DNA of 19,638 nt, taken from positions 1 to 19,638 of the IMG/VR virus record IMGVR_UViG_2695420718_000005. One strand, given 5' to 3'. The translations under genes and the position numbers were made by a program. The stretch comes from a virus. Its lineage: Duplodnaviria; Heunggongvirae; Uroviricota; Caudoviricetes. The notes under the pieces are model-generated. The model was not told where the DNA came from, made no database searches, and saw only the letters and a list, made by a program, of their open reading frames with translations. Within the stretch, counting starts at the first letter, position 1. Every line of letters starts with the position of its first letter. Shown here piece after piece: positions 1-17,000 of the stretch.

Positions 1-89
1 CGATCTGTTGCCCTGGAAAGTTGATCTGAGCTCTCAGTAAATATCAATACGGTTCTGACGAGTCGCTTACAAACAAAAGGCTGGTTAAC

Positions 90-311
90 ATGAAAAAAAT
101 GGCAATTGTCGATAAAAAGGGTCTGGAGTACATTCCTAATATCGATCGTATGATCCGTGAGAAAGAATGTCGGGAGCTAACCACTCTTGCGAACAGCACA
201 CGCTGGAAGCTGGAGAAGGAAGGAAAATTTCCTAAGCGGATCAAGATTGGTTCCACTGCTGTTGCATATCGTCTTTCAGAAGTGCAGGCATGGATTAGGG
301 GAGAGTGGTAA
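90..311 (+). CDS. alpA: AlpA-family (prophage CP4-57-type) HTH transcriptional regulator
   Basis: 73-aa ORF; the stretch RELTTLANSTRWKLEKEGKFPKRIKIGSTAVAYRLSEVQAWI fits the AlpA/Phage_AlpA HTH pattern with a conserved Trp near the C-terminus; AAGG about 10 nt upstream of the ATG. An integrase would be expected upstream, outside the window. Confidence 0.8.
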   Translation: MKKMAIVDKKGLEYIPNIDRMIREKECRELTTLANSTRWKLEKEGKFPKRIKIGSTAVAYRLSEVQAWIRGEW

Positions 312-330
312 GAATTTAGACAGTGGATGT

Positions 331-357
331 AATCCTATGGGGTAAACCCATAGGATT
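331..357. terminator. Perfect 11-bp inverted repeat (aatcctatggg / cccataggatt, 5-nt loop) between convergent genes; possible bidirectional terminator
   Basis: Read directly: lies between the alpA stop (311) and the stop of the minus-strand 449-aa gene (363). No clear U-tract on either side, so intrinsic termination is uncertain. Confidence 0.35.
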
Positions 358-362
358 TGAAA

Positions 363-1712
363 TCACTTAAATTCAAATACGTGCGTAGTTGATGAGATTA
401 TATAATTAGGTGGTAAGTATTGAACTATTTCTCCATCTTCTTCAAAAATATGAATAACTCTTGGGAATAATTCAGGGTGTATAGGATTTAATGCCTTCGG
501 ATTATGAAACATGTATATTGCTGTACACCATGGTTCTTGATATGAAGGTGCATTGACAAGAGCAGTAAAAGGCATTGGGGTACAGCCTTCATCAGTTTTA
601 ATACCTCTAACGATGGATTTGACATTTTTTTGTTCAATCCCTGCCACTACTCCCATCCTATCAAATTTTGGGATGGTGGCATGTGTCGCAAGTAATATGG
701 CTGAGACATTCTCATTTTTATTAGAGCCGAAAAAATTAGATTGTATACTTCGATTTTCAAATAAATGTTGTTCAATTTTACTTCCAGAATCCATATCTAC
801 ACCATACAGATAGCTTTGTAGTGCTGGCATTGATATACTCATCGAAAATCTGCGTGAGTAATCGTGTAAAGCAATAATGAAAGGCTTTCCTTTTGTATGA
901 TCTAGTTCCCAATAGCATAATTTTAAGGGTTCAGGTTTATGCCTAACTTTCTTTAATAGAGTGCGGGCAAATTTGAATGGCATTTGTTCTTTTACATATC
1001 TCTGAAGATCTTCTACTGCCTCATGATCAAGTATCAATTTCTCGGTAGGTTCCTCTTGTTCTGCAACTGTGGCAGCTTCTACAGCAATATCAATGCCATT
1101 TTTTGAGATAATATAATCAGGTTGAGCATAATCTCTGCATATTACGAAATCCATTTCGTAGAAAACTGCGTTTAGATAAAGTTCGAATAAGCGAGAGTTA
1201 AATGAAGCACTCTGGAAATCTCTGATGAATATTCCATCAGGATCTTTACACCAATAAGCTAACTCTTGCATAACAATAAATGCAGGATAGTGTTTGGGTT
1301 CCTCAAGTAGCATTCTTAGATAAACGTTTTTTTTATGTTCTGGAACTTTGGCTAGGAATATTGAAAATGCCGACTCTGATTCGTCACCCTGTATAAAACA
1401 ACCGTTCTTGTGTAGTGATAATAGCTCTGGTATGGCTTTTTCCATATCAGTAATTAAATCATCTTTAGATTCACGGGATACAATTACTTTAATCGCTCTA
1501 AATTTTTTATCTAAATCCCTACCTAGAAATATAGCGTTGTAATCATTATCTATTTTACAAAAAACAATTGTTGCTAAGATCGTGACATCATCCTTTATAA
1601 ATTTGAACCAACAGATTTCCTCCGAAAAGGTTTTTACGTATGGTGTACGACCATAGAAAAATACATCAAATTGTTCTTTACTGATTTCTAGCATTTTGTG
1701 ACTTGTTGTCAT
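363..1712 (-). CDS. Hypothetical 449-aa protein, visibly AT-rich cargo gene; no family recognised
   Basis: Long uninterrupted minus-strand ORF, much more AT-rich than the flanking phage genes; 23 bp downstream of and co-oriented with the RHH gene. No Walker A or other motif I can name confidently; a weak PD-(D/E)xK-like pattern (FVICRD...PDYIIS...IDIAVEAAT) is only suggestive. Confidence 0.7.
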   Translation of the reverse strand: MTTSHKMLEISKEQFDVFFYGRTPYVKTFSEEICWFKFIKDDVTILATIVFCKIDNDYNAIFLGRDLDKKFRAIKVIVSRESKDDLITDMEKAIPELLSLHKNGCFIQGDESESAFSIFLAKVPEHKKNVYLRMLLEEPKHYPAFIVMQELAYWCKDPDGIFIRDFQSASFNSRLFELYLNAVFYEMDFVICRDYAQPDYIISKNGIDIAVEAATVAEQEEPTEKLILDHEAVEDLQRYVKEQMPFKFARTLLKKVRHKPEPLKLCYWELDHTKGKPFIIALHDYSRRFSMSISMPALQSYLYGVDMDSGSKIEQHLFENRSIQSNFFGSNKNENVSAILLATHATIPKFDRMGVVAGIEQKNVKSIVRGIKTDEGCTPMPFTALVNAPSYQEPWCTAIYMFHNPKALNPIHPELFPRVIHIFEEDGEIVQYLPPNYIISSTTHVFEFK

Positions 1713-1735
1713 AGAAGAATCCTTTATGCAAATTA

Positions 1736-1930
1736 TCAGCCTTTAGGTGTTATTCCTTGTTTTATTAGTTCGGCACGAGCCAGTTCTTTTAGCCAGTTAC
1801 CTAAGCTCATCCCTTCTTTGGCAGCGACATTAACCATTTGTTCTTTTAATTCTGGGTTAATACGGACTTGGAATGCTGGTGCTTTACCTGCACCTTTCGG
1901 TTGTTTATCACGTTGAATGATAGTTGACAT
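1736..1930 (-). CDS. Arc/MetJ-type ribbon-helix-helix DNA-binding protein (64 aa)
   Basis: PAFQVRINPELKEQMVNVAAKEGMSLGNWLKELARAEL resembles the Arc-repressor layout (N-terminal beta-strand then two helices); first gene of a two-gene minus-strand operon. Confidence 0.55.
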   Translation of the reverse strand: MSTIIQRDKQPKGAGKAPAFQVRINPELKEQMVNVAAKEGMSLGNWLKELARAELIKQGITPKG

Positions 1931-1952
1931 GTGTGTACCTATTGCTTAGTAT
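1924..1952 (+). promoter_or_regulatory. Candidate sigma70 promoter (TTGACA, 17-nt spacer, TAGTAT) reading rightward into the small-gene/primase operon
   Basis: ttgaca at 1924-1929, 17-nt spacer, tagtat at 1947-1952; overlaps the inverted repeat at 1931-1972. Confidence 0.4.
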
Positions 1953-1972
1953 GATTCTTGATAGGTACACAC
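1931..1972. promoter_or_regulatory. Perfect 12-bp inverted repeat (gtgtgtacctat ... ataggtacacac, 18-bp spacer); candidate operator
   Basis: Read directly; sits immediately 5' of the RHH gene start codon (minus strand) and overlaps the candidate rightward promoter, i.e. in the divergent control region. Confidence 0.45.
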
Positions 1973-2069
1973 CTTATCATGTTTTATTGCTATATAACAA
2001 CGCCCTGCAGTGCTCGCAACACATACAGGGCGTCTAACCACCAACGATAGCAACAGTATCGAGGTAGCT

Positions 2070-2273
2070 ATGAGAAATCATACCACACACCCGCAAGGGC
2101 GGGATTCGCACAACCTGAATAAATACATCTGGCGTTTTATCGCCCTGAGCACCGCACAACCACGCGTAATACACATCGAGGCCGCCAGCGAACAGGAAGC
2201 CCGCCAGCAATCCCCAACTGGCTACGTGATGATATTCGCCGCCCGTATTCGTCAGGAGGTGTGCCGTGCTTAA
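2070..2273 (+). CDS. Hypothetical small protein (67 aa from the internal ATG)
   Basis: ATG at 2070 preceded by GAGG; the longer ORF from 2010 lacks an RBS. Same strand and operon as the downstream coupled genes. Confidence 0.35.
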   Translation: MRNHTTHPQGRDSHNLNKYIWRFIALSTAQPRVIHIEAASEQEARQQSPTGYVMIFAARIRQEVCRA

Positions 2274-2451
2274 AACCTTCCGTGTATTTGCCCGAGCTGT
2301 TAACCCACTGGGCCACACAATTGGTATCACTCAGAACGTGAAGGCTGTTAATGTTCAGACGGCTATTGCTGCGGTGAGAAGCGAATCATCAGAATATGGC
2401 TTATCACAAGTCATTATTTCAGCAGTGTATGAATTAAAAGAGGTGCATTAA
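2266..2451 (+). CDS. Hypothetical small protein (61 aa)
   Basis: GTG start 6 nt after a strong AGGAGG RBS (2254-2259); stop overlaps the next start (ATGA at 2451). Confidence 0.45.
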   Translation: MLKTFRVFARAVNPLGHTIGITQNVKAVNVQTAIAAVRSESSEYGLSQVIISAVYELKEVH

Positions 2452-2642
2452 TGCAGGAAATCACATTACACGAAGCCGCTGAACGTGCGCACCAGACAGA
2501 AATTATTTGCCGCCTTCTTGAGGTATACCCGAACAAAATTACAGATGCTGATATATCCGCGCTGGCGAGCCTACTGGCGCGCCTTTCGGGAAGTGTCGCT
2601 AGTTTCCTGATTGAGGAAGAAAGTAAGCTGGTGGGGGATTAA
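2451..2642 (+). CDS. Hypothetical small protein (63 aa)
   Basis: Start overlaps the upstream stop; stop overlaps the next start; translationally coupled operon. Confidence 0.45.
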   Translation: MQEITLHEAAERAHQTEIICRLLEVYPNKITDADISALASLLARLSGSVASFLIEEESKLVGD

Positions 2643-2864
2643 ATGAATACAGAACGGGAAGTCTTTTTTAAATTGTTAGCATGTGCAGAAAGTTCATTAA
2701 CTTTAAATAATTCAGCAAAAGCAATATTAAATATGTGGCTTGATTGCATAAATGACAATGAAGATGCAAATATTGCTTATGGCCTGTTGTCACTTATTGA
2801 TGAATCAGCAGAAAAACTCAATGACGCAATAAATAGTGCCCTGCTATCAAATAAGTCGAGTTAA
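2643..2864 (+). CDS. Hypothetical small protein (73 aa), AT-rich
   Basis: ORF in the same coupled series. Confidence 0.4.
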   Translation: MNTEREVFFKLLACAESSLTLNNSAKAILNMWLDCINDNEDANIAYGLLSLIDESAEKLNDAINSALLSNKSS

Positions 2865-2881
2865 GTCGAGGAATAAATAAT

Positions 2882-3181
2882 ATGGAAATGAAAAATTCTG
2901 GCTTTATTGCCAGCGGCCCCGCTCGGCCTGAATTTATGAACGGCGATATTTACCGCGATAAATACGGCGGCACGGTAACGATTAAAGGCGTGGCAGAACG
3001 GCGCATCACTTACCGCCGTGAGGGGTATAGCTATGACTGCGTGATGCCTGTTTATCAGTTCCGGCGTGATTTTTCCCTGGTATATGCCGCACCCCGCAGT
3101 AAGCCCATCAGCAGGGAAAAAGCGCGGGGAAACATCCAGAAAATGAAAAGCATGATTAACGCATTCAGGGGCAAAAAATGA
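2882..3181 (+). CDS. Hypothetical protein (99 aa); stop overlaps the primase start
   Basis: ATG at 2882 preceded by gaggaataaataat; the stop overlaps the ATG of the 583-aa gene (ATGA at 3178-3181). Confidence 0.5.
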   Translation: MEMKNSGFIASGPARPEFMNGDIYRDKYGGTVTIKGVAERRITYRREGYSYDCVMPVYQFRRDFSLVYAAPRSKPISREKARGNIQKMKSMINAFRGKK

Positions 3182-4929
3182 AACTGGCACCGAACTTAAA
3201 AAAACAGCCACGCGACAGACTGACAGAGGTAATCATCTTTGCAGGTAGTGATGCGTGGAGCCATGCGAAAGAGTGGCGGGAATGGGCGGGTAAACATATT
3301 GCCGCCGACGATGTGCCGCCTGTCGTGCTGGCTGATGAGCAACTGAAAAATATCACCGATTACCGGATCATTGATGAAGATCGTCAGTGTGTGCGTGTTT
3401 ACCGCGCAGGACATATCACAGAGCACAGCATGACGCAGATTGTTACGTTACTGGCTGTGGCTGGAGTGAAGACCGTACACGAATACGCGGGGATTACTGA
3501 CACCAGCCCAGTGGATTTATCCGAGCAGTTGCCGCGACTCAAAGAGGAATGCGAGCGTGGGGAAAGTCTGGTGCTTAATCTTCCGACGAAGCAAAAGGCG
3601 CAACTTTCACAGATGGCAGACAGTGAACGTGCACAACTACTTGCCGATCGCTTTGATGGTGTGTGTGTTCATGCAGAAAGTGAAATCGTCCACGTATGGC
3701 GCGGCGGGGTATGGTGTCCGGTCAGCACAATGGAGCTGAGCCGCGAAATGGTGGCGATCTATTCAGAGCACAGGGCCACGTTCAGCAAACGTGTAATCAA
3801 TAACGCCGTGGAAGCGTTAAAAGTTATTGCCGACCCCATGGGGGAGCCGTCCGGTGATTTGCTACCGTTCACTAATGGTGTGCTTAACCTGAAAACGGGG
3901 GAATTTTCTCCGCACTCGCCGGAGCACTGGAGCACCACGCACAATGGCATTGAGTACACGCCACCAGTAGCAGGGGAAAACATCCGCGATAATGCGCCAA
4001 ATTTCCATAAATGGCTTGAACATGCTGCAAGAAAAGACCCGCGTAAGATGATGCGTATATGTGCCGCGTTATACATGATTATGGCGAACCGCTACGACTG
4101 GCAGATGTTCATTGAGGCCACCGGAGACGGGGGAAGCGGTAAGAGTACATTTACCCATATTGCCACCCTGCTTGCTGGCAAACAGAACACCGTAAGCGCG
4201 GAGATGACATCACTCGATGATGCAGGAGGGCGCGCGCAGGTTGTCGGGAGTCGTCTTATCGTCCTTGCCGATCAGCCGAAATATACGGGGGAAGGCACGG
4301 GCATCAAGAAAATCACGGGAGGCGATCCCGTTGAAATTAACCCGAAATATGAGAAGCGATTCACGACGATAATAAGGGCGGTGGTACTGGCAACCAATAA
4401 CGACCCGATGATCTTTACCGAACGGGCCGGAGGTGTGTCACGCCGTCGGGTGATTTTCCGGTTCGACAACATTGTAAGGGAGGACGAAAAAGACAAGGAA
4501 TTACCGGAAAAGATAGCGGCAGAAATCCCCGTAATTATCCGCCGCTTGCTGGCTAATTTTGCTGCCCCTGAAAAGGCACGGGCTTTATTACTGGAACAGC
4601 GTGACGGTGATGAAGCTCTGGCAATAAAGCAGCAAACGGATCCGGTTGTTGAGCTTTGCGCGGCGCTGGAGTTTCTGGAGGAAGCTCGTGGGCTAATGAT
4701 GGGCGGTGGTGGTGACACCGTGAAGTACACGACCAGAAACAGCCTTTACCGTGTCTATATGGCCTTCATGGCATACACAGGAAAGGGGAAATGTTTGAGC
4801 GTGAATGAGTTCGGAAAGGCTATGAGGTCAGCGGCGAAAGTTTACGGATATGAATATATTACGCGAAAAGTTAAGGGAGTCACGCAGACCAACGCAACGA
4901 CTACTGATGATTGCGATGCGTTTTTATAA
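3178..4929 (+). CDS. P4-family phage/plasmid primase C-terminal domain / D5-N-like SF3 helicase replication protein (583 aa)
   Basis: Walker A motif GDGGSGKST in the context typical of P4 alpha / PICI Pri-Rep C-terminal helicase domains; immediately followed by an iteron array. Confidence 0.85.
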   Translation: MKLAPNLKKQPRDRLTEVIIFAGSDAWSHAKEWREWAGKHIAADDVPPVVLADEQLKNITDYRIIDEDRQCVRVYRAGHITEHSMTQIVTLLAVAGVKTVHEYAGITDTSPVDLSEQLPRLKEECERGESLVLNLPTKQKAQLSQMADSERAQLLADRFDGVCVHAESEIVHVWRGGVWCPVSTMELSREMVAIYSEHRATFSKRVINNAVEALKVIADPMGEPSGDLLPFTNGVLNLKTGEFSPHSPEHWSTTHNGIEYTPPVAGENIRDNAPNFHKWLEHAARKDPRKMMRICAALYMIMANRYDWQMFIEATGDGGSGKSTFTHIATLLAGKQNTVSAEMTSLDDAGGRAQVVGSRLIVLADQPKYTGEGTGIKKITGGDPVEINPKYEKRFTTIIRAVVLATNNDPMIFTERAGGVSRRRVIFRFDNIVREDEKDKELPEKIAAEIPVIIRRLLANFAAPEKARALLLEQRDGDEALAIKQQTDPVVELCAALEFLEEARGLMMGGGGDTVKYTTRNSLYRVYMAFMAYTGKGKCLSVNEFGKAMRSAAKVYGYEYITRKVKGVTQTNATTTDDCDAFL

Positions 4930-4942
4930 AAAATGGCAATGG

Positions 4943-5171
4943 TTATCTACCTTGTCTACCTGACTGAAAGAAAATACTTTTATTTCAATGTATTAATGCA
5001 GGTAGATAACTATTTTTCACTGTCTACCTGTTATCTACCTTATCTACCCATTTTTGTAGACAGGTAAGGAGACGGGTAGAGATGAGGTAGACAGCTATTT
5101 GGGGCTGTCTACCTCCCTGAAACCCGCGCCATTACTGGCCTGATAACTAATCAGGTAGACAAGGTAGACAA
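4943..5171. repeat. Iteron array (about 11 copies of GGTAGAYA / TRTCTACC in both orientations) with AT-rich flanks; candidate replication origin
   Basis: Read directly: ttatctacc-ttgtctacc (4943-4960), ggtagataa (5001-5009), tgtctacc / ttatctacc / ttatctacc (5021-5048), gtagacagg (5056-5064), ggtagaca (5087-5094), tgtctacc (5106-5113), ggtagacaa-ggtagacaa (5154-5171); AT-rich stretch at 4967-4998. Confidence 0.75.
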
Positions 5172-5218
5172 GGTGGTGGTGCACAAAAAACTTTTTAAAC
5201 GAGGGGGTAAAAATAAAA

Positions 5219-5476
5219 ATGCACACATCAGGAAAACTGAACAAACATATAAAGCCACATTACCGCGCCCTTGATATGGCTGAACACTGGCTAAGGGTGG
5301 CGATTAAGGCAATAGACCGCAACGCCGGGGAAGGATACGCGAAAGCACATCCCGAACTGATAAGCGCATTCATGACAACGGCGGCTGCAAACTTTGCCAC
5401 GCTGACCGAACGGGAGATTGCTGAAGCGGAGGAAGTGACAACAATCAATATTAAGTCCGGAGAGCAGGCAGCATGA
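5219..5476 (+). CDS. Hypothetical protein (85 aa)
   Basis: ORF directly downstream of the iterons; its stop overlaps the ssb start (ATGA at 5473). Confidence 0.5.
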   Translation: MHTSGKLNKHIKPHYRALDMAEHWLRVAIKAIDRNAGEGYAKAHPELISAFMTTAAANFATLTEREIAEAEEVTTINIKSGEQAA

Positions 5477-5922
5477 CGGCGCAAATATCAGTTTACGGGC
5501 GGTTGGTGGACGACCCGCAGACAAAACAGACCAGCAAGGGCACCCCCATGACGCTGGCGCGTATGGCGGTATCACTGCCCTGCAGTCAGTCGGATGACGG
5601 TCTGGCGACGTTGTGGTTATCTGTCCTGGCGTTTGGCAGACAAGCCGACGCGCTGGCAAAGCATCACAAAGGCGAACTCCTGAGCGTGGCGGGTAACATG
5701 CAGATGAGCCAGTGGACTGGACAGAACGGCGAAACGCGGCAGGGCTGGCAGGTTATCGCAGACAGCGTAATCAGTGCGCGATCGGTGCGACCGGGCGGCA
5801 AAAAAGGCCAACAGGGGCAGGCTACTGACGCACTGAACAGAGCAAAACAACAGGCAGATCAGCAAGGAAGCCAGCCACCAGAGGGAGATAATGAGCAATG
5901 GGGAGATGATATCCCGTTTTAA
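5473..5922 (+). CDS. ssb: Single-stranded DNA-binding protein (149 aa)
   Basis: N-terminal OB-fold-like region, Gln/Gly-rich linker and the diagnostic acidic C-terminal tail ending DDIPF (E. coli SSB ends DDDIPF). Confidence 0.85.
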   Translation: MTAQISVYGRLVDDPQTKQTSKGTPMTLARMAVSLPCSQSDDGLATLWLSVLAFGRQADALAKHHKGELLSVAGNMQMSQWTGQNGETRQGWQVIADSVISARSVRPGGKKGQQGQATDALNRAKQQADQQGSQPPEGDNEQWGDDIPF

Positions 5923-5940
5923 ATATTGCCAATAAAAAAA

Positions 5941-5964
5941 GCCGGAAAAAATAAATTTTCCGGC
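5941..5964. other. Palindrome gccggaaaa-aataaa-ttttccggc between ssb and the capsid-like gene
   Basis: Perfect 9-bp arms read directly; could be a terminator-like structure or a protein-binding site. Confidence 0.3.
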
Positions 5965-6138
5965 ATGCTACATAAATCCCGACCAAAGGGAGTGAAGATA
6001 TTAACACTAATTGTCCGCACTGAAGTTGTCACCCCAAAACTTTATACAACATTGCACTCGGTTGCATGTGTTCGCATGACAAATATCGGTGATAGCATAT
6101 ATCCACAATTATTTTTAATGAATGCAAAGAGGATGCGT

Positions 6139-7179
6139 ATGGTTGATTTATATTCGCCTACCCAGCTTGTACAGGTGGTTAATGCTGTAGATGTACAAAA
6201 ACAACTAAATGCGTTGTTTACCAGTTTGTTTTTTACTCGCTCGGTAATGTTTGGATCGCGCGATATTATTCTTGATACAATCGACGATCCAAATATCCCA
6301 ATTGCAGCGTTTTGTTCTCCTATGGTGGGTAGTAAAGTTTCACGTGACGAAGGGTACGAATCAAAAACAATTCGTCCAGGCTATATGAAGCCGAAAAGCA
6401 GCATTGATCCAAATAAGTTAGCTGTGCGCCCTGCTGGTGTATCACCTGAGCAATACAATGCTTTTGGGGCGCGTAATATTAAAGTTAAACAGGCGATTGT
6501 AAATCAAGCTAAAGCTATTCGTGCACGTATTGAATGGCTTGCCGTTCAGGCAATCACAACGGGGAAAAATATCATTGAGGGCGATGGTATTGAACGTTAT
6601 GAGCTGGACTGGAATATTAAACCACAAAATATCATCACTCAGTCTGGCGGTACTGAGTGGTCAGGTAAGGATAAAGAAACTTTTGATCCAAATGATGATA
6701 TTGAGAGCTACGCAGAATTTAGTGAGGGCGTCACTAATATCATCATTATGGGCGGTAATGTATGGAAGAAATACCGTTCATTCAGAGCGATAAAAGAGGC
6801 TCTGGATACCCGTCGTGGTTCTAATTCCGAACTGGAAACGGCCCTTAAAGACCTTGGTGATTCGGTGAGTTTTAAAGGATATATGGGCGATGTTGCGATT
6901 GTTGTTTACAGCGGGCGTTATACCGACGAGGACGGAACTGAAAAACATTTCCTTGATCCTGATTTGATGGTGCTTGGCAATACGGCTCTTCAGGGGATTG
7001 TCGCCTATGGCGGTATTCAGGATCCGGAGCTAATCCGAATGGGGCTGACTAAAGCCGAACTTGCACCGAAAAACTATATTGTGCCTGGTGATCCGGCTAT
7101 TGAATATGTGCAGACACATTCAGCACCACAGCCAATACCGGCCCGCATCAATCGTTTTGTTACCGTTCGCATTGGCTAA
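6139..7179 (+). CDS. Major capsid protein, diverged homologue of lambda gpE (347 aa from the RBS-preceded ATG)
   Basis: Segments PGYMKPK, ITQSGGTEWSGKDKETFDPNDDIESYA and LDTRRGSNSELETALKDLGDSVSFKGYMGDVAIVVYSG align with remembered lambda E; AAAGAGGA RBS before the ATG at 6139. The longer ORF from 5926 has no homology in its extension. Confidence 0.8.
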   Translation: MVDLYSPTQLVQVVNAVDVQKQLNALFTSLFFTRSVMFGSRDIILDTIDDPNIPIAAFCSPMVGSKVSRDEGYESKTIRPGYMKPKSSIDPNKLAVRPAGVSPEQYNAFGARNIKVKQAIVNQAKAIRARIEWLAVQAITTGKNIIEGDGIERYELDWNIKPQNIITQSGGTEWSGKDKETFDPNDDIESYAEFSEGVTNIIIMGGNVWKKYRSFRAIKEALDTRRGSNSELETALKDLGDSVSFKGYMGDVAIVVYSGRYTDEDGTEKHFLDPDLMVLGNTALQGIVAYGGIQDPELIRMGLTKAELAPKNYIVPGDPAIEYVQTHSAPQPIPARINRFVTVRIG

Positions 7180-7188
7180 GGGGGAGCA

Positions 7189-7530
7189 ATGGCTACTCAT
7201 TACACTGAACTCATGGCTGGCACTGAAGCACTGGTGACTACGCTGGGGATATTTTCAGCTAATAAAGGGGTAATTCCTGCATTTACGCCACTGATGCAGG
7301 AAGATGCAACAGGTGCACTGGTGGTATGGGATGGTTCGAGCGTAGGTAAAGCGGTTTATGTTTCCGCTGTACAAATCGACACCGCGAAAAAAACACAGGC
7401 TCAGGTCTATAAGACAGGTGTCTTAAATGTTGATGCTCTGAACTGGCCTGAGTCTGTAAAAGAACTGTCAGTAAAGATTGCAGCGTTTGTTGGCTCAGGT
7501 ATTTCTGTTCAGCCGCTGGCTCGTGTGTAA
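7189..7530 (+). CDS. Head decoration protein, lambda gpD-like (113 aa)
   Basis: PAFTPLMQEDATGALVVWDG, YKTGVLNVDALNWPE and AAFVGSGISV align with remembered lambda D (TPLMLDTSSRKLVAWDG, YKSGTFRYEDVLWPE, TAFAGTAISI); GGGGGAG RBS. Confidence 0.75.
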   Translation: MATHYTELMAGTEALVTTLGIFSANKGVIPAFTPLMQEDATGALVVWDGSSVGKAVYVSAVQIDTAKKTQAQVYKTGVLNVDALNWPESVKELSVKIAAFVGSGISVQPLARV

Positions 7531-7541
7531 AGGGGGATACA

Positions 7542-7925
7542 ATGCAAAATGATTACAATGACCTTAAGCCAATTGCCGAAATGATGTACCCGAATCCAGC
7601 TGTAGAGGAATTAAAAGCTATCGCTGACAAAATGTGTTTAAGCGAGCGCCTTGTTGATATGAATCAGGTGATGGAAATTACAACCCTGAGTCGGCGTACA
7701 CTGCTAAACCTTGAGGCTAGTGGAGAGTTCCCGGAGCGTGTGCAGGTTACGGAAGGGCGTAAGGCCTGGTATTTAAGTGAAGTGATCGACTGGATAAATA
7801 ATATTCCTCGCGCTTCTGAATATTGCCGCGTACCTGTCCCAAAAAAGCCAGATGCGGCGCTATGCCTCAAGATTGAGCGTGTACGCCGCAATGCACGGGA
7901 TGGTCGCTATAAGCTGATTGGTTGA
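7542..7925 (+). CDS. AlpA-like HTH DNA-binding protein with N-terminal extension (127 aa)
   Basis: MEITTLSRRTLLNLEASGEFPERVQV...WYLSEVIDWI fits the AlpA-type HTH pattern; AGGGGGA RBS; located immediately upstream of the cos site. Confidence 0.6.
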   Translation: MQNDYNDLKPIAEMMYPNPAVEELKAIADKMCLSERLVDMNQVMEITTLSRRTLLNLEASGEFPERVQVTEGRKAWYLSEVIDWINNIPRASEYCRVPVPKKPDAALCLKIERVRRNARDGRYKLIG

Positions 7926-7933
7926 TGAAATTA

Positions 7934-7962
7934 GGGCCCGCTCTGGCTGGCGGGTCCTTTCC
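7934..7962 (+). terminator. Candidate intrinsic terminator (gggcccgc-tctggctg-gcgggtcc followed by tttcc)
   Basis: GC-rich imperfect hairpin followed by a short T-run, just after the 127-aa gene stop. Confidence 0.4.
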
Positions 7963-7981
7963 GGCGATCTGACAGGCTACG

Positions 7982-7993
7982 GGGCGTCAGGCG
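7982..7993. other. cosN-equivalent (gggcgtcaggcg), divergent from lambda cosN GGGCGGCGACCT
   Basis: Position and flanks (acg before, cgcgg-attttcgc after) correspond to the lambda cohesive-end region as I recall it; 5 of 12 positions differ. Confidence 0.55.
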
Positions 7994-7998
7994 CGCGG

Positions 7999-8170
7999 AT
8001 TTTCGCTATTTATGAAAATTTTCCGGTTTAAGGCGTTTCCGTTCTTCTTCGTCGTAACTTAATGTTTTTATTTAAAATACCCCCTGAAAAGAAAGGAAAC
8101 GACAGGTGCTGAAAGCGAGCTTTTTGGCCTCTGTCGTTTCCTTTCTCTGTTTTTGTCCGTGGAATGAACA
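7999..8170 (+). promoter_or_regulatory. Lambda-type cosB with Nu1-binding repeats R3, R2, R1 (CGTTTCC / GGAAACG)
   Basis: attttcgctatttatgaaaattttccggtttaaggcgtttccgttcttcttcg ... aaaggaaacgacaggtg ... ctgtcgtttcctttctc matches my recollection of the lambda left end nearly base for base; three CGTTTCC-type repeats read directly. Confidence 0.75.
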
Positions 8171-8722
8171 ATGGAAGTCAACAAAAAGCAGCTGGCTGAC
8201 ATTTTCGGTGCGAGTATCCGTACCATTCAGAACTGGCAGGAACAGGGAATGCCCGTTCTGCGAGGCGGTGGCAAGGGTAATGAGGTGCTTTATGACTCTG
8301 CCGCCGTTATAAGATGGTATGCCGAAAGGGATGCTGAAATTGAGAACGAAAAGCTGCGCCGGGAAGTTGAAGAACTGCGGCAGGCCAGCGAGACAGATCT
8401 CCAGCCAGGGACTATTGAGTACGAACGCCATCGACTTACGCGTGCGCAGGCCGACGCACAGGAACTGAAGAATGCCAGCGAAACAGGTGAGGTAATTGAC
8501 ACTGCATTTGCGACTTATGCCTTGTCGAAATTAACTGGGGAAGTTGGAGCAATCATTGATAGTCTTCCACTTGCGATCTGTCGACAGTTTCCTGGCATGG
8601 AAAAACGGTATCAGGACTTCATTAAGATGGAGGTCAGTAAAGCATTTATTCGAGCTTACCAGATCTCAGATAACATTCCAGATATGGCTGAAAGGTATAT
8701 CAAGGATAATCAGCGAAGTTAA
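8171..8722 (+). CDS. Nu1: Terminase small subunit Nu1 (183 aa); N-terminal DNA-binding half lambda-like, C-terminal half diverged
   Basis: MEVNKKQLADIFGASIRTIQNWQEQGMPVLRGGGKGNEVLYDSAAV... is essentially lambda Nu1; the C-terminal ~70 aa are homologous but diverged. No gpA gene follows. Confidence 0.9.
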   Translation: MEVNKKQLADIFGASIRTIQNWQEQGMPVLRGGGKGNEVLYDSAAVIRWYAERDAEIENEKLRREVEELRQASETDLQPGTIEYERHRLTRAQADAQELKNASETGEVIDTAFATYALSKLTGEVGAIIDSLPLAICRQFPGMEKRYQDFIKMEVSKAFIRAYQISDNIPDMAERYIKDNQRS

Positions 8723-8778
8723 AACAAATGAAACCATAGGTAGGAAGAGTGCTTAGGTGGTTCTTTGTTGCTTAAAAG

Positions 8779-8810
8779 TCGCCAGTAAAACTGGCGATAG
8801 ATTTTATTTG
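8779..8810. terminator. Hairpin tcgccag-taaaa-ctggcga followed by tagattttatttg; candidate bidirectional terminator between Nu1 and the convergent 301-aa gene
   Basis: Perfect 7-bp stem and T-rich tract read directly; lies between convergent gene ends. Confidence 0.45.
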
Positions 8811-8828
8811 TCAAAAGCATTTGACCTT

Positions 8829-9734
8829 TTAAGGTAGTGGTACTATGGATATTTTTCTGTCGTTCCCAAATGAACTTTTAAATAATTTCGCTCTTGGATA
8901 CATTTTAACTAGTGATGCGACTTCATCGAACTCGCTGGCATCAAAAAGAGGACCAAGTATTACAGATTTTAACTCAAAAGGGTGAAATTTTAAGTCGCTA
9001 TATTGACCAGTGCTATTTGGCCTAGCGTAGGTTGAAATTCTCCACTCTCTTTCATATGCCCATTCTTCTGTTTTTATGAATATTATCTCATTATTGATAT
9101 ATTCAATTGACTTATTGTCTGGCATGAAAAGCAACTCGGCCATCCCTTCAGCAGTGTGAGTTAGAGGCATTTCATCTGTGTATTTCATAGGTTTGGCTAT
9201 TAACCAAGCGCTATCCAGAAAGTCTACACAATCAAATTCGATAACTATACCTTTATATTTATCGGCATAGTGATTCCACATAGGAGTGATTATAGGGCTC
9301 TCAGATAAACACAAAATCCTTCTGTTATTAAGCATTCCTCGCCAGACATCTTTCATTTCTTGTATTGCCGCAGGAGCGCCAATCCCAACTGGTGGAATGT
9401 TTACCATTTCTTGAAATCTTTCAATTAATCCTGCGGGTATGCCTAAAGGAAATGACTTTTGGAAATCACTTAGCATTGTTCTAATTCTAGGGTTTAAATT
9501 TTGTATGTCTTCTCTGGGGGTAATCAACTCCGCTATTAACTTGCGGGCTAAAGCTTTGCCAATATTAATTTCGTTAATACCAGGCATAACTTCTCTTGGA
9601 ACATCAAAAGGGTCATTAAATAGGACCGGAGAACTCCATCTAAGGCTGCATGAATCAAGAACAATCTTCGCGGTATTCAACGACATATACTTATAAAATG
9701 TTGAGCGTTCATGCATTCTGTTGGGTGAGCGCAT
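8829..9734 (-). CDS. Hypothetical 301-aa protein, AT-rich moron; motif pattern reminiscent of the DUF2971 family (unverified recollection)
   Basis: Long minus-strand ORF, strongly AT-rich relative to the flanking lambda genes; motifs FYKYMSL, FNDPFD, RILCLSESPIITPMWNHYADKYKGIVIEFD. It occupies the position where lambda A through Nu3, D and E-5' would be. Confidence 0.7.
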   Translation of the reverse strand: MRSPNRMHERSTFYKYMSLNTAKIVLDSCSLRWSSPVLFNDPFDVPREVMPGINEINIGKALARKLIAELITPREDIQNLNPRIRTMLSDFQKSFPLGIPAGLIERFQEMVNIPPVGIGAPAAIQEMKDVWRGMLNNRRILCLSESPIITPMWNHYADKYKGIVIEFDCVDFLDSAWLIAKPMKYTDEMPLTHTAEGMAELLFMPDNKSIEYINNEIIFIKTEEWAYEREWRISTYARPNSTGQYSDLKFHPFELKSVILGPLFDASEFDEVASLVKMYPRAKLFKSSFGNDRKISIVPLP

Positions 9735-9870
9735 AGATTCCTCTTGTTAAATGAGTGATGGTTTTCATCCATGTATTGCACGTTGTATTGCATTCAAGGA
9801 TTTTCCATTTCAATTCTATAGCTAAAACGTAATCAAATCATTCACATCCTTTCATATTTGACTCATGTAG

Positions 9871-10659
9871 CCGAAGCATGAGGTGAATCCGCAGATGACC
9901 CTGCGTCGCCTGCCGGATGAAGATCCGCAGAATCTGGCGGACCCGGCTTACCGCCGCCGTCGCATCATCATGCAGAACATGCGAGACGAAGAGCTGGCCA
10001 TTGCTCAGGTCGAAGAGATGCAGGCAGTTTCTGCTGTGCTTAAGGGCAAATACACCATGACCGGTGAAGCCTTCGATCCGGTTGAGGTGGATATGGGCCG
10101 CAGTGCGGCGAACAACATCACACAGTCCGGTGGTACGGAGTGGAGCAAGCGTGACAAGTCCACGTATGACCCGACCGACGATATCGAAGCCTATGCGCTG
10201 AACGCCAGCGGAGTGGTGAATATCATCGTGTTTGATCCGAAAGGCTGGGCGCTGTTCCGTTCCTTCAAAGCCGTCAAGGAGAAGCTGGATACCCGTCGCG
10301 GCTCTAATTCCGAGCTGGAGACAGCGGTAAAAGACCTGGGCGAAGCGGTGTCCTATAAGGGGATGTATGGCGATACGGCGATCGTCGTGTATTCCGGACA
10401 GTACGTGGAAAACGACGTCAAAAAGAACTTCCTTCCGGACAACACGATGGTGCTGGGGAACTCTCAGGCACGCGGTCTGCGCACCTATGGCTGCATTCAG
10501 GATGCGGACGCACAGCGCGAAGGTATTAACGCCTCTGCCCGCTACCCGAAAAACTGGGTGACCACCGGCGATCCGGCGCGTGAGTTCACCATGATTCAGT
10601 CAGCACCGCTGATGCTGCTGGCTGACCCTGATGCGTTCGTGTCCGTACAACTGGCGTAA
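9871..10659 (+). pseudogene. E: 5'-truncated major capsid gene E (lambda gpE residues ~90 to end)
   Basis: Translation PKHEVNPQMTLRRLPDEDPQNLADPAYRRRRIIMQNMRDEEL... matches lambda E almost residue for residue; homology stops abruptly near 9866-9870, where an in-frame TAG (9868-9870) is present; no proper N-terminus or RBS. Confidence 0.8.
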
Positions 10660-13629: not shown

Positions 13630-14045
13630 GTTTTGCCCTGAAACTGGCGCGTGAGATGGGGCGACCCGACTGGCGTGCCATGCTTGCCGGGATGTCATCC
13701 ACGGAGTATGCCGACTGGCACCGCTTTTACAGTACCCATTATTTTCATGATGTTCTGCTGGATATGCACTTTTCCGGGCTGACGTACACCGTGCTCAGCC
13801 TGTTTTTCAGCGATCCGGATATGCATCCGCTGGATTTCAGTCTGCTGAACCGGCGCGAGGCTGACGAAGAGCCTGAAGATGATGTGCTGATGCAGAAAGC
13901 GGCAGGGCTTGCCGGAGGTGTCCGCTTTGGCCCGGACGGGAATGAAGTTATCCCCGCTTCCCCGGATGTGGCGGACATGACGGAGGATGACGTAATGCTG
14001 ATGACAGTATCAGAAGGGATCGCAGGAGGAGTCCGGTATGGCTGA
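13207..14045 (+). CDS. G-T: G-T tail assembly chaperone fusion produced by -1 frameshift (T portion 13611..14045)
   Basis: The -1 frame ORF after the slippery site encodes ...FDGELSFALKLAREMGRPDWRAMLAGMSSTEYADWHRFY..., matching the lambda T region; no independent RBS or start. Confidence 0.8.
13605..13611 (+). promoter_or_regulatory. Programmed -1 ribosomal frameshift slippery heptamer G GGA AAG (G to G-T)
   Basis: GGGAAAG read in the G frame near the 3' end of G; the -1 frame continues as the T ORF to 14045. Confidence 0.8.
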
Positions 14046-17000
14046 ACCTGTAGGCGATCTGGTCGTTGATTTGAGTCTGGATGCGGCCAGATTTGACGAG
14101 CAGATGGCCAGAGTCAGGCGTCATTTTTCCGGTACGGAAAGTGATGCGAAAAGAACAGCGGCAGTCGTTGAACAGTCGCTGAGCCGACAGGCGCTGGCTG
14201 CACAGAAAGCGGGGATTTCCGTCGGGCAGTATAAAGCCGCCATGCGTATGCTGCCTGCACAGTTCACCGACGTGGCCACGCAGCTTGCAGGCGGGCAAAG
14301 TCCGTGGCTGATCCTGCTGCAACAGGGGGGGCAGGTGAAGGACTCCTTCGGCGGGATGATCCCCATGTTCAGGGGGCTTGCCGGTGCGATCACCCTGCCG
14401 ATGGTGGGGGCCACCTCGCTGGCGGTGGCGACCGGTGCGCTGGCGTATGCCTGGTATCAGGGCAACTCAACCCTGTCCGATTTCAACAAAACGCTGGTCC
14501 TTTCCGGTCATCAGTCGGGTCTGACGGCAGATCGTATGCTGGTCCTGTCCAGAGCCGGGCAGGCGGCAGGGCTGACGTTTAACCAGACCAGCGAGTCACT
14601 CAGCGCACTGGTTAAGGCGGGGGTAAGCGGTGAGGCTCAGATTGCGTCCATCAGCCAGAGTGTGGCGCGTTTCTCCTCTGCATCCGGCGTGGAGGTGGAC
14701 AAGGTCGCTGAAGCCTTCGGGAAGCTGACCACAGACCCGACGTCGGGGCTGACGGCGATGGCACGCCAGTTCCATAACGTGACGGCGGAGCAGATTGCGT
14801 ATGTTGCTCAGTTGCAGCGTTCCGGCGATGAAGCCGGGGCATTGCAGGCGGCGAACGAGGCCGCAACGAAAGGGTTTGATGACCAGACCCGCCGCCTGAA
14901 AGAGAACATGGGCACGCTGGAGACCTGGGCAGACAGGACTGCGCGGGCATTCAAATCCATGTGGGATGCGGTGCTGGATATTGGTCGTCCTGATACCGCG
15001 CAGGAGATGCTGATTAAGGCAGAGGCTGCGTTTAAGAAAGCAGACGACATCTGGAATCTGCGCAAGGATGATTATTTTGTTAACGATGAAGCGCGGGCGC
15101 GTTACTGGGATGATCGTGAAAAGGCCCGTCTTGCGCTTGAAGCCGCCCGAAAGAAGGCTGAGCAGCAGACTCAACAGGACAAAAATGCGCAGCAGCAGAG
15201 CGATACCGAAGCGTCACGGCTGAAATATACCGAAGAGGCGCAGAAGGCTTACGAACGGCTGCAGACACCGCTGGAGAAATATACCGCCCGTCAGGAAGAA
15301 CTGAACAAGGCACTGAAAGACGGGAAAATCCTGCAGGCAGATTACAACACGCTGATGGCGGCGGCGAAAAAGGATTATGAAGCGACGCTGAAAAAGCCGA
15401 AACAGTCCGGCGTGAAAGTGTCTGCGGGCGATCGTCAGGAAGACAGTGCTCATGCTGCCCTGCTGACGCTTCAGGCAGAACTCCGGACGCTGGAGAAGCA
15501 TGCCGGAGCAAATGAGAAAATCAGCCAGCAGCGCCGGGATTTGTGGAAGGCGGAGAGTCAGTTCGCGGTACTGGAGGAGGCGGCGCAACGTCGCCAGCTG
15601 TCTGCACAGGAGAAATCCCTGCTGGCGCATAAAGATGAGACGCTGGAGTACAAACGCCAGCTGGCTGCACTTGGCGACAAGGTTACGTATCAGGAGCGCC
15701 TGAACGCGCTGGCGCAGCAGGCGGATAAATTCGCACAGCAGCAACGGGCAAAACGGGCCGCCATTGATGCGAAAAGCCGGGGGCTGACTGACCGGCAGGC
15801 AGAACGGGAAGCCACGGAACAGCGCCTGAAGGAACAGTATGGCGATAATCCGCTGGCGCTGAATAACATCATGTCAGAGCAGAAAAAGACCTGGGCGGCT
15901 GAAGACCAGCTTCGCGGGAACTGGATGGCAGGCCTGAAGTCCGGCTGGAGTGAGTGGGAAGAGAGCGCCACGGACAGTATGTCGCAGGTAAAAAGTGCAG
16001 CCACGCAGACCTTTGATGGTATTGCACAGAATATGGCGGCGATGCTGACCGGCAGTGAGCAGAACTGGCGCAGCTTCACCCGTTCCGTGCTGTCCATGAT
16101 GACAGAAATTCTGCTTAAGCAGGCAATGGTGGGGATTGTCGGGAGTATCGGCAGCGCCATTGGCGGGGCTGTTGGTGGCGGCGCATCCGCGTCAGGCGGT
16201 ACAGCCATTCAGGCCGCTGCGGCGAAATTCCATTTTGCAACCGGAGGATTTACGGGAACCGGCGGCAAATATGAGCCAGCGGGGATTGTTCACCGTGGTG
16301 AGTTTGTCTTCACGAAGGAGGCAACCAGCCGGATTGGCGTGGGGAATCTTTACCGGCTGATGCGCGGCTATGCCACCGGCGGTTATGTCGGTACACCGGG
16401 CAGCATGGCAGACAGCCGGTCGCAGGCGTCCGGGACGTTTGAGCAGAATAACCATGTGGTGATTAACAAAGGACTGATGGCGATGGCGCGCCAGTTCCGT
16501 AACGTGACGGCAGAGCAGATTGCGTATGTTGCACAGCTGCAGCGTTCCGGAGACGAGGCCGGGGCATTGCAGGCGGCGAACGATATCGCCACGAAAGGCT
16601 TTGATGAGCAGACCCGTCGCCTGAAAGAAAACATGGGAACACTGGAGACCTGGGCGGATAAAACAGGGAAGGCATTCAAATCGATGTGGGATGCCATTCT
16701 GGATATCGGTCGTCCTGAATCCTCAGCGGATATGCTCGCCAGTGCGCAGAAGGCATTTGATGAGGCGGATAAAAAATGGCAGTGGTACCAGAGCCGGAGC
16801 CAGCGCCGGGGAAAGACCTCCTCTTTTCGTGCGAACCTTCAGGGGGCATGGGATGACAGGGAAAATGCCCGTCTGGGTCTGGCAGCGGCCACGCTGCAGT
16901 CGGATATGGAAAAAGCCGGTGAACTGGCGGCAAGGGACCGGGCTGAGCGTGAGGCGTCACAGCTGAAGTATACCGGAGAGGCGCAGAAGGCGTATGAGCG

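Follow-up and report, generated by a model that had tools for sequence, protein, structure and literature searches.

What is the function of an AlpA-family gene that lies in a capsid module beside cos and not beside int? This question is raised by alpA2, which we found at positions 7542-7925 of the window, i.e. the whole stretch of 19,638 nucleotides that was analysed. A first-pass annotation had proposed its product as a candidate packaging or late-gene regulator with a possible relation to Rpp. We characterized the gene, its neighbourhood and its relatives computationally and find the evidence to favour a regulator of the capsid genes.

A satellite inside gene E of a lambdoid prophage

Positions 1-9878 of the window are a helper-embedded PICI inside gene E of a lambdoid prophage. 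Helper-embedded PICIs are a known kind of satellite that was described in 2023 (PMC10111431). The int gene lies just beyond the left end of the window. The following features of the element and its right border were identified:

1-9878 (7511-19660 of locus L001): helper-embedded PICI of 11 kb, co-oriented with gene E
90-311, + strand: alpA1, canonical 73-aa PICI AlpA, directly 3' of int
363-1712, - strand: PD-T7-1 cargo defence protein of 449 aa (PADLOC, 1e-153)
1736-1930, - strand: small 64-aa ORF beside PD-T7-1
2882-4929: DUF4222 and primase
4938-5170: ori iterons, dense direct and inverted repeats GTCTACCT/AGGTAGAC just 3' of the primase
8829-9734, - strand: DUF2971 cargo protein, matching the candidate system PDC-S31
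9772-9793: doubled arm motif TGTATTGCACGTTGTATTGCAT, i.e. TGTATTGCA twice with a 12-bp period
9869-9878: attR core AGCCGAAGCA
9865-10659: C-terminal fragment of gene E, following the satellite

The gene order is alpA1, PD-T7-1 cargo, DUF4222 and primase, ori iterons, an 85-aa ORF, SSB and an E-like capsid gene, followed by a gpD-like gene, alpA2, cos, a Nu1-like TerS gene, DUF2971 and attR. The repeats at 4938-5170 are likely the replication origin of the satellite. As in helper-embedded PICIs at E:Phage_cap_E, we found insertion into the capsid gene, co-orientation with it, a 10-bp identity block and the order int-alpA-primase. The doubled TGTATTGCA that characterizes these elements about 81 bp from the core (PMC10111431) is present at 9772-9793. 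Fragments of E flank the element in L001. The same 11-kb element, from int through the DUF2971 gene, lies within gene E of a lambdoid prophage of E. coli 184/2aE, where the N-terminal E fragment precedes int and the C-terminal fragment follows the element. In this arrangement the helper capsid protein is unavailable until the satellite leaves gene E.

Cargo fills two variable spots of the satellite, at which relatives carry Abi_C, SWIM or another DUF2971. An Rfam scan of window positions 1-10000 gave no hits. In the helper part, the tape-measure gene H (14038-18336) encodes 1,432 aa rather than 853. Over residues 1-810 it shares 99% identity with lambda H 1-810, and residues 812-1432 correspond to lambda H 237-853 at 78% identity. 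The enlarged H would be a hybrid in-frame tandem duplication that predicts a considerably elongated tail, unless it is an assembly artefact.

alpA2 encodes an AlpA-type protein with extended termini

The gene and the predicted domains of its product are:

7542-7925, + strand: alpA2, AlpA-family winged helix-turn-helix (wHTH) protein of 127 aa
residues 8-15 and 19-33: predicted N-terminal helices
residues 36-90: predicted wHTH
residues 105-119: predicted basic C-terminal helix

The ORF starts with an ATG that is preceded by AAGGGGG. It is a real gene for a conserved AlpA-type protein with predicted DNA binding. The first-pass annotation had described a second AlpA-like HTH protein with an extension beyond the HTH and had suggested a profile search against the AlpA family. 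In this search Phage_AlpA (PF05930) matched residues 36-85 with 35.8 bits over all 51 model positions (Pfam; curated cut-off 21 bits), and PHROG 2790 ('excisionase and transcriptional regulator') matched at 1e-49. The first AlpA is AlpA1 at 90-311, which is 36% identical to AlpA2 over 67 residues, and the wHTH is flanked on both sides, such that both parts of the description hold.

The fold was assessed using an AF2 model based on a 101-sequence alignment (pLDDT 81.6), which superseded a poor earlier model from 27 close homologues (pLDDT 63). Compared with solved members, the model has the winged helix-turn-helix fold of the AlpA-Xis family. The closest solved chain in a phmmer search of the PDB was 8C3T, the AlpA-family excisionase of GIsul2; up to an E-value of 1 just four further matches appeared, none of them named AlpA. 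The structure-comparison table gave values of 10.4 for 8C3T, 7.0 for RdfS, 6.9 for Pukovnik Xis, 6.7 for BldC and 6.6 each for RppC and the N-domain of lambda TerS. The leading Foldseek matches (8C3T, RdfS, BldC) are in agreement with this. At 6.6 each, the likeness of RppC and TerS to AlpA2 is therefore at the general level of the MerR/Xis superfamily only. AlpA2 departs from the small single-domain form of the family (about 60-75 aa, int-adjacent): it has 127 aa with both termini extended, and its gene lies about 7 kb from int inside the capsid module. The P. aeruginosa AlpA antiterminator was rejected as a model. It is a Q-like protein of another architecture, with a 21Q-like fold, a C-terminal HTH (H7-H8, contacts R128-H142) and an N-terminal segment reaching into the RNA exit channel (PMC9371919); the shared name is coincidental.

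The RefSeq label of AlpA2 is the generic 'helix-turn-helix transcriptional regulator'. The description of the helper-embedded PICIs classes Phage_AlpA as 'integration' and leaves a second, late-zone copy undiscussed (PMC10111431). We found alpA2 in 408 of 5,426 complete E. coli genomes. Its 98 close homologues, mostly of 127 aa, come from Escherichia, Enterobacter, Citrobacter, Klebsiella, Pluralibacter, Salmonella, Trabulsiella, Buttiauxella and Scandinavium. A tblastn search of 50,697 phage genomes gave no match, and we therefore consider AlpA2 specific to satellites. The pN/pS ratio is 0.13 in the HTH compared to about 0.5 in the flanking extensions, and the recognition helix is nearly invariant among relatives. 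Even members with only 47-49% identity retain the basic C-terminal helix (about 105-119, LCLKIERVRR).

alpA2 travels with the capsid genes

As often in Gram-negative PICIs, the satellite has capsid and decoration genes of its own. These directly precede alpA2:

6139-7179, + strand: satellite major capsid protein, lambda E-like, 346 aa from the RefSeq start (module gene 1)
7189-7530, + strand: satellite head decoration protein, lambda gpD-like, 113 aa (module gene 2)

We surveyed 142 loci from genomes, metagenomes and IMG/VR. The gpD-like gene lies directly 5' of alpA2 in 140 of them, and the E-like capsid gene lies ahead of the gpD-like gene in all 135 loci with enough upstream sequence. Among the complete E. 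coli genomes, at least 80% of alpA2 was present in 395 and at least 80% of cap plus gpD likewise in 395, the two counts being separate.

The trio occurs in different backbones: in capE helper-embedded PICIs with AlpA1, in tRNA-Ile2-type PICIs (L004, L015) with a different integrase of 477-479 aa and an HTH_17 protein, and in a fis PICI with a DUF927 primase (L017). It stays constant over three integrase types, two primase types and varied packaging genes. Its 3' neighbours vary: some loci have a satellite-type Nu1 together with its own cosB, others a cosB of lambda type (Nu1 being present or absent), and others Rpp or an unrelated gene of 208 aa. Since all these partners change around a near-invariant recognition helix, AlpA2 is unlikely to be matched to the integrase, the att site, replication, cosB or TerS. 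As judged from synteny, it is the capsid genes to which AlpA2 is matched.

Proximity to cos

Downstream of alpA2 the satellite carries its packaging functions:

7934-7957, + strand: hairpin GGGCCCGC-N8-GCGGGTCC after alpA2, its 3' arm overlapping cosQ
7952-8170, + strand: satellite cos, with cosQ GGGTCCT at 7952-7958 and a lambda-type cosB (R3/R2/R1)
7982-7993: cosN overhang GGGCGTCAGGCG, 12 nt
8171-8722, + strand: Nu1-type small terminase (TerS)

That the cos site is genuine is seen from region 7951-8170, which shares 94.6% identity with lambda cos. The stop codon of alpA2 is 56 nt from the cosN overhang, as expected from the earlier figure of about 55 bp. Both cos and Nu1 had apparently been treated as belonging to a lambda helper; however, they lie inside the satellite, left of attR (9869-9878). 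Despite the lambda-like cosQ and cosB, the cohesive end is GGGCGTCAGGCG here and GGGCGGCGACCT in lambda. At least 11 overhang sequences occur among 132 related satellites, with GGGCGTCAGGCG in 63 and the lambda type in 49. The satellite TerS is chimeric. Its aa 1-95 share 98% identity with lambda Nu1 and are accompanied by the lambda-type cosB, while aa 96-183 are satellite-type, with 43% identity to lambda compared to 68% to the satellite TerS in a Kosakonia element. In most relatives the DNA-binding domain of TerS is satellite-specific and the cosB is their own (ctggtggtggtgttgttgtt...); the archetype 11capE is without terS (PMC10111431). AlpA2 itself gave no Phage_Nu1 match in Pfam (PF07471) and was negative in hhalign against an alignment of Rpp with Nu1.

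The adjacency to cos had been read as placing AlpA2 well for acting on cos or on late transcription. In diverged relatives, however, the interval between the alpA2 stop codon and cosQ holds no conserved repeat or operator-like sequence but only a hairpin of variable sequence, which does not support action on cos. The position of alpA2 beside cos simply reflects its last place in the late operon. As a terminator or attenuator the hairpin at 7934-7957 was rejected: it lacks a U-tract, has a z-score of -1.58 and was not flagged by the terminator scan. Several relatives have canonical terminators at this place.

Relation of AlpA2 to Rpp

Rpp proteins are 144-153 aa long and consist of a TerS-like wHTH at residues 1-64 and a dimerising C-terminal coiled coil (PMC6739421). 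Through binding to the helper TerS they retarget it to the cosB of the PICI itself (PMC6739421). A relation to Rpp had been considered for AlpA2, and a profile comparison had been suggested, which we carried out. From its sequence AlpA2 is not Rpp. A phmmer search of the PDB with AlpA2 up to an E-value of 1 returned no Rpp chain (6HLK, 6HN7), hhalign against an alignment of Rpp and Nu1 gave a probability of 0.45% (E 0.13), and tblastn with RppA matched other genes and never alpA2. The TerS of the window weakly matches RppC by sequence (E 0.038), whereas AlpA2 does not. Architecture and gene position differ as well: the wHTH spans residues 36-90 of AlpA2 compared to 1-64 of Rpp, and alpA2 lies upstream of cosQ while rppA lies downstream of cos.

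For comparison, the late region of EcCICFT073 (locus L002) is organized as follows:

669-1724: capsid
1736-2071: decoration
2084-2497: 137-aa gene
next: cos1, with cosN GGGCGGCGACCT
2660-3094: rppA, 144 aa

Because rppA occupies this slot in EcCICFT073, the positional counterpart of Rpp in our satellite is the Nu1-like TerS at 8171-8722. The 137-aa gene, in the same slot as alpA2, has no similarity to AlpA2. Its similarity is to the Nu3/scaffold portion at the C-terminus of the lambdoid head protease (37% over 83 aa; PHROG 53), such that PICI capsid modules come in at least two versions, capsid-decoration-scaffold-like and capsid-decoration-AlpA2. A PICI of Pluralibacter gergoviae combines an AlpA2 that is 72% identical to ours with a truncated Rpp paralogue (L006 1848-2243, upstream of cos and without the wHTH), a cos site and a full-length RppA homologue (2392-2811, downstream of cos; 70% to RppA). 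Rpp and AlpA2 are therefore not alternatives, and together with the negative comparisons and the different slot this removes the suspected relation.

These data also bear on the idea that AlpA2 is a packaging factor. Such a factor would bind at or near cos, or would pair with the small terminase or Rpp; alternatively, similar to lambda FI, it would couple the terminase-DNA complex to capsids made of satellite protein. The position beside cos and the superfamily-level fold would be in agreement with it. Given that AlpA2 coexists with Rpp and with several TerS types, and that diverged relatives share no conserved site next to cos, we consider a packaging factor quite improbable.

A conserved repeat array and a putative promoter ahead of the capsid gene

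Upstream of the capsid ATG at 6139 we found the following elements:

6042-6067, + strand: candidate operator, consisting of TTATAC (6042-6047), TTGCAC (6052-6057) and TTGCAT (6062-6067) with a 10-bp period
6072-6077: degenerate fourth repeat unit TCGCAT
6090-6098, + strand: extended -10 TGaTAGCAT of a putative promoter, P_cap, 22 nt past the last good repeat

No -35 hexamer was found for P_cap. In the alignment of capsid-upstream sequences the repeat array is the single conserved block in otherwise divergent spacers. Arrays of 2-5 direct repeats (TTGCAC/TTATAC, 10-11 bp period) were present in all 47 distinct upstream regions, which represent 135 loci. Where the extended -10 (TGnTAnnAT) was found, it usually lies 21-22 nt past the last unit (11 nt in one element); the pattern search detected none in 11 of the 47 regions. 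In the window this is the only array of at least three units, with 0 expected in shuffles. With the strict pattern, the capsid-upstream array is the sole one of at least three units in each locus having one. Neither lambda nor the 49-kb CFT073 locus (EcCICFT073 late genes and lambdoid helper prophage) contains the array. Pairs of units were absent from lambda, the CFT073 helper prophage and the helper region of L001, and targets of this type in the helper were therefore rejected.

When the -10 hexamer is set to -12 to -7, the unit centres fall near -40.5, -51, -61.5 and -71.5, which is the usual geometry for an activator-dependent promoter. AlpA2 and the repeats may covary: L017 has the most divergent AlpA2 (47% identical, recognition helix SRQT for SRRT), and its array units are diverged to TTAGAC, TTGGGT and TTGTGC. 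The Buttiauxella element has the unit TTATAC. This covariation, seen in one or two lineages, is suggestive.

The array was distinguished from two other repeats of the satellite. The ori iterons differ in sequence (GTCTACCT) and are located at 4938-5170. The integrase-arm motif has a period of 12 bp and is still TGTATTGCA in L003, an element with TTATAC as its promoter unit; moreover, the array persists in PICIs with unrelated integrases. The arm motif of helper-embedded PICIs appears to track the integrase clade. Nevertheless, the arm motif (TGTATTGCA, 9772-9793) and the promoter repeats (A)TTGCAC (6042-6067) have the core ATTGCA in common.

This common core would fit a role of AlpA2 as a second excisionase that either times a late exit from gene E or replaces the helper Xis. 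The best structural and profile matches of AlpA2 are indeed excisionases (8C3T, RdfS and Pukovnik Xis; PHROG 2790), satellite excision is reported to occur after composite replication (PMC10111431), and the second AlpA of EcCIMP1 can replace the helper Xis (PMC11773190). However, RDFs co-evolve with the integrase and the att arms, while AlpA2 ignores the integrase type: satellites whose integrases and sites are unrelated (capE, tRNA-Ile2) have AlpA2 proteins that are about 70% identical, and the fis PICI has one with 47% identity. The capE, tRNA-Ile2 and fis satellites each already have an RDF-type gene beside int. The arm motif is constant in six of six capE-site helper-embedded PICIs, including L003 despite its different promoter units, and it is reported to be absent from other PICIs (PMC10111431), though these carry AlpA2. 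No similarity to the excisionase remnants of the CFT073 icd prophage was detected by tblastn. A second excisionase is thus an unlikely reading.

A proposed role in capsid gene expression

We propose that AlpA2 is the capsid module's own transcription factor and probably an activator of P_cap. Drawn from genomic context, this proposal has in our estimate about an even chance of being correct. We infer the link between AlpA2 and the array solely from their co-inheritance. Of the two functions that had been put forward for the protein, late-gene regulation is favoured by the capsid synteny and the array, and packaging is not. A role in packaging or as an excisionase is less likely.

In the proposed mechanism P_cap, the capsid gene (E-like), the decoration gene (gpD-like) and alpA2 would form a single operon that ends just before cos. 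In the manner of Xis, BldC and winged-helix proteins of the RdfS type, AlpA2 monomers would occupy the repeats head-to-tail along a single face of the DNA. Bound AlpA2 would recruit RNA polymerase to P_cap, which offers no usable -35; its basic C-terminal helix is perhaps a contact surface for the polymerase or for cooperativity. The first AlpA2 would arise from read-through, either from helper late transcription into the embedded satellite or from the AlpA1-driven early operon. In the embedded state, helper late transcription is expected to enter the satellite (PMC10111431). Priming in chromosomal PICIs would occur through the AlpA1 or HTH_17 early operon. Once made, AlpA2 would amplify the operon that encodes it, resulting in a late burst of satellite capsid and decoration protein. 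Binding to the array, activation as its effect and the manner of priming are the parts of the mechanism that we infer.

Several points weigh against an activator. The nearest solved relatives of AlpA2 are excisionases and not activators, and the covariation comes from one or two lineages. An activator encoded last in its own operon needs a priming transcript, which is assumed here. EcCICFT073 can be transferred without its capsid and decoration genes (PMC6092414), such that the benefit of controlling them is hard to see. The repeat unit resembles the arm motif TGTATTGCA, so that another binder is conceivable. A host or helper factor could also occupy the array, in which TTGC-N6-TTGC has the half-site spacing of lambda CII; in a CII-like reading, however, the position with respect to the -10 deviates by about 14 nt, and neither L003 nor L017 has TTGC.

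AlpA2 could instead repress P_cap, or another factor could bind the array while AlpA2 targets helper or host genes. Xis-like filaments can repress, and P4 Vis, a relative of AlpA, is a repressor at one late promoter but stimulates a second. Host regulators of the OmpR/PhoB type typically recognize direct repeats with a 10-bp period, and the CII-like spacing would likewise suit a different binder. On the other hand, the array lies upstream of a -35-less promoter and ends at about -38, a geometry of activation and not of occlusion. Targets elsewhere are disfavoured by the lack of unit pairs in lambda, the L001 helper part and the CFT073 helper prophage, and a host factor by the strict co-inheritance of the array with alpA2 across genera. 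We regard repression or a different target as improbable.

An extension of the proposed activator role would be that AlpA2 is the switch of P_cap and in addition contacts TerS, Rpp or the satellite capsid protein with its C-terminal helix. It would then be an FI-like satellite adaptor that steers cos-bound terminase to satellite-capsid shells. We consider such a dual role very unlikely. If true, it would constitute a third strategy of packaging hijack besides Rpp and the satellite TerS.

Novelty and significance

The element type, the AlpA family and Rpp are already known. What appears to be new is a distinct longer AlpA paralogue as integral third gene of a widespread PICI capsid module, a conserved repeat array with an extended -10 ahead of this module, and the recognition of the Rpp counterpart as the Nu1-type gene across cos. 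The latter corrects a misassignment: the evolutionary and positional counterpart of Rpp is the Nu1-type gene and not AlpA2. Among satellite genes, the AlpA-family label therefore includes two or more paralogues with separate functions. With its readable candidate operator, a dedicated regulator would provide a direct experimental handle on satellite capsid genes. alpA2 bears on the timing and purpose of the satellites' own capsid protein, with the greatest relevance for helper-embedded satellites, which interrupt the helper capsid gene. The regulatory hypothesis for AlpA2 is testable and of moderate interest; it describes no new kind of system.

Comparison with known systems

PICI AlpA (AlpA of EcCICFT073, AlpA1 here) shares with AlpA2 the family assignments PF05930 and PHROG 2790, 36% identity over the wHTH and its origin from PICIs. 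It is the master activator of Gram-negative PICIs and activates transcription, including that of its own gene (PMC6092414). With about 70 aa it is shorter than AlpA2, whose 127 aa include a further two helices at the N-terminus and, at the C-terminus, the conserved basic helix. The recognition helix reads SRRTLLNLE in AlpA2 and ANSTRWKLE in PICI AlpA. The gene for PICI AlpA lies by int and is integrase-linked, whereas alpA2 lies in the capsid module by cos and is capsid-linked. Rpp (RppA/B/C; 6HLK, 6HN7) is, like AlpA2, a small PICI-encoded protein with a wHTH of the MerR/Xis superfamily and a gene beside cos. It differs from AlpA2 in having no homology to it, in its N-terminal wHTH (1-64) followed by a coiled coil and in the location of its gene on the cosB side. 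The GIsul2 excisionase (8C3T), RdfS and Pukovnik Xis are minimal single-domain proteins tied to their cognate integrases, while AlpA2 is decoupled from the integrase type.

Streptomyces BldC (6AMA, 6AMK) has an Xis-like wHTH as well, and its binding mode is the one proposed for AlpA2. BldC monomers bind cooperatively and head-to-tail to variable numbers of direct repeats in the control of transcription; Xis also binds DNA in a head-to-tail manner. BldC belongs to an unrelated organism and regulon, is 13-18% identical to AlpA2 and is without the extensions. EcCIMP1 alpA_1 is, like alpA2, a second AlpA-family gene at the far end of a PICI (PMC11773190) and the only described case that we found. 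It is dispensable for excision and transfer of the PICI (PMC11773190). Unlike alpA2, it lies on the opposite strand, resembles the TorI-like Xis of the helper and has no linkage to capsid genes, EcCIMP1 being without recognisable ones.

In P4, the sid-delta-psu operon is a capsid-modifying satellite operon that encodes its own activator. P4 also has Vis, which acts on satellite late promoters. Vis is a homologue of AlpA (PMC6092414). In contrast to the alpA2 module, the activator Delta is an Ogr-type zinc finger, P4 has no capsid gene of its own, and the target sites and the helper, P2, are others. By analogy, the P4 sid-delta-psu operon would still be the closest functional equivalent of the alpA2 module.
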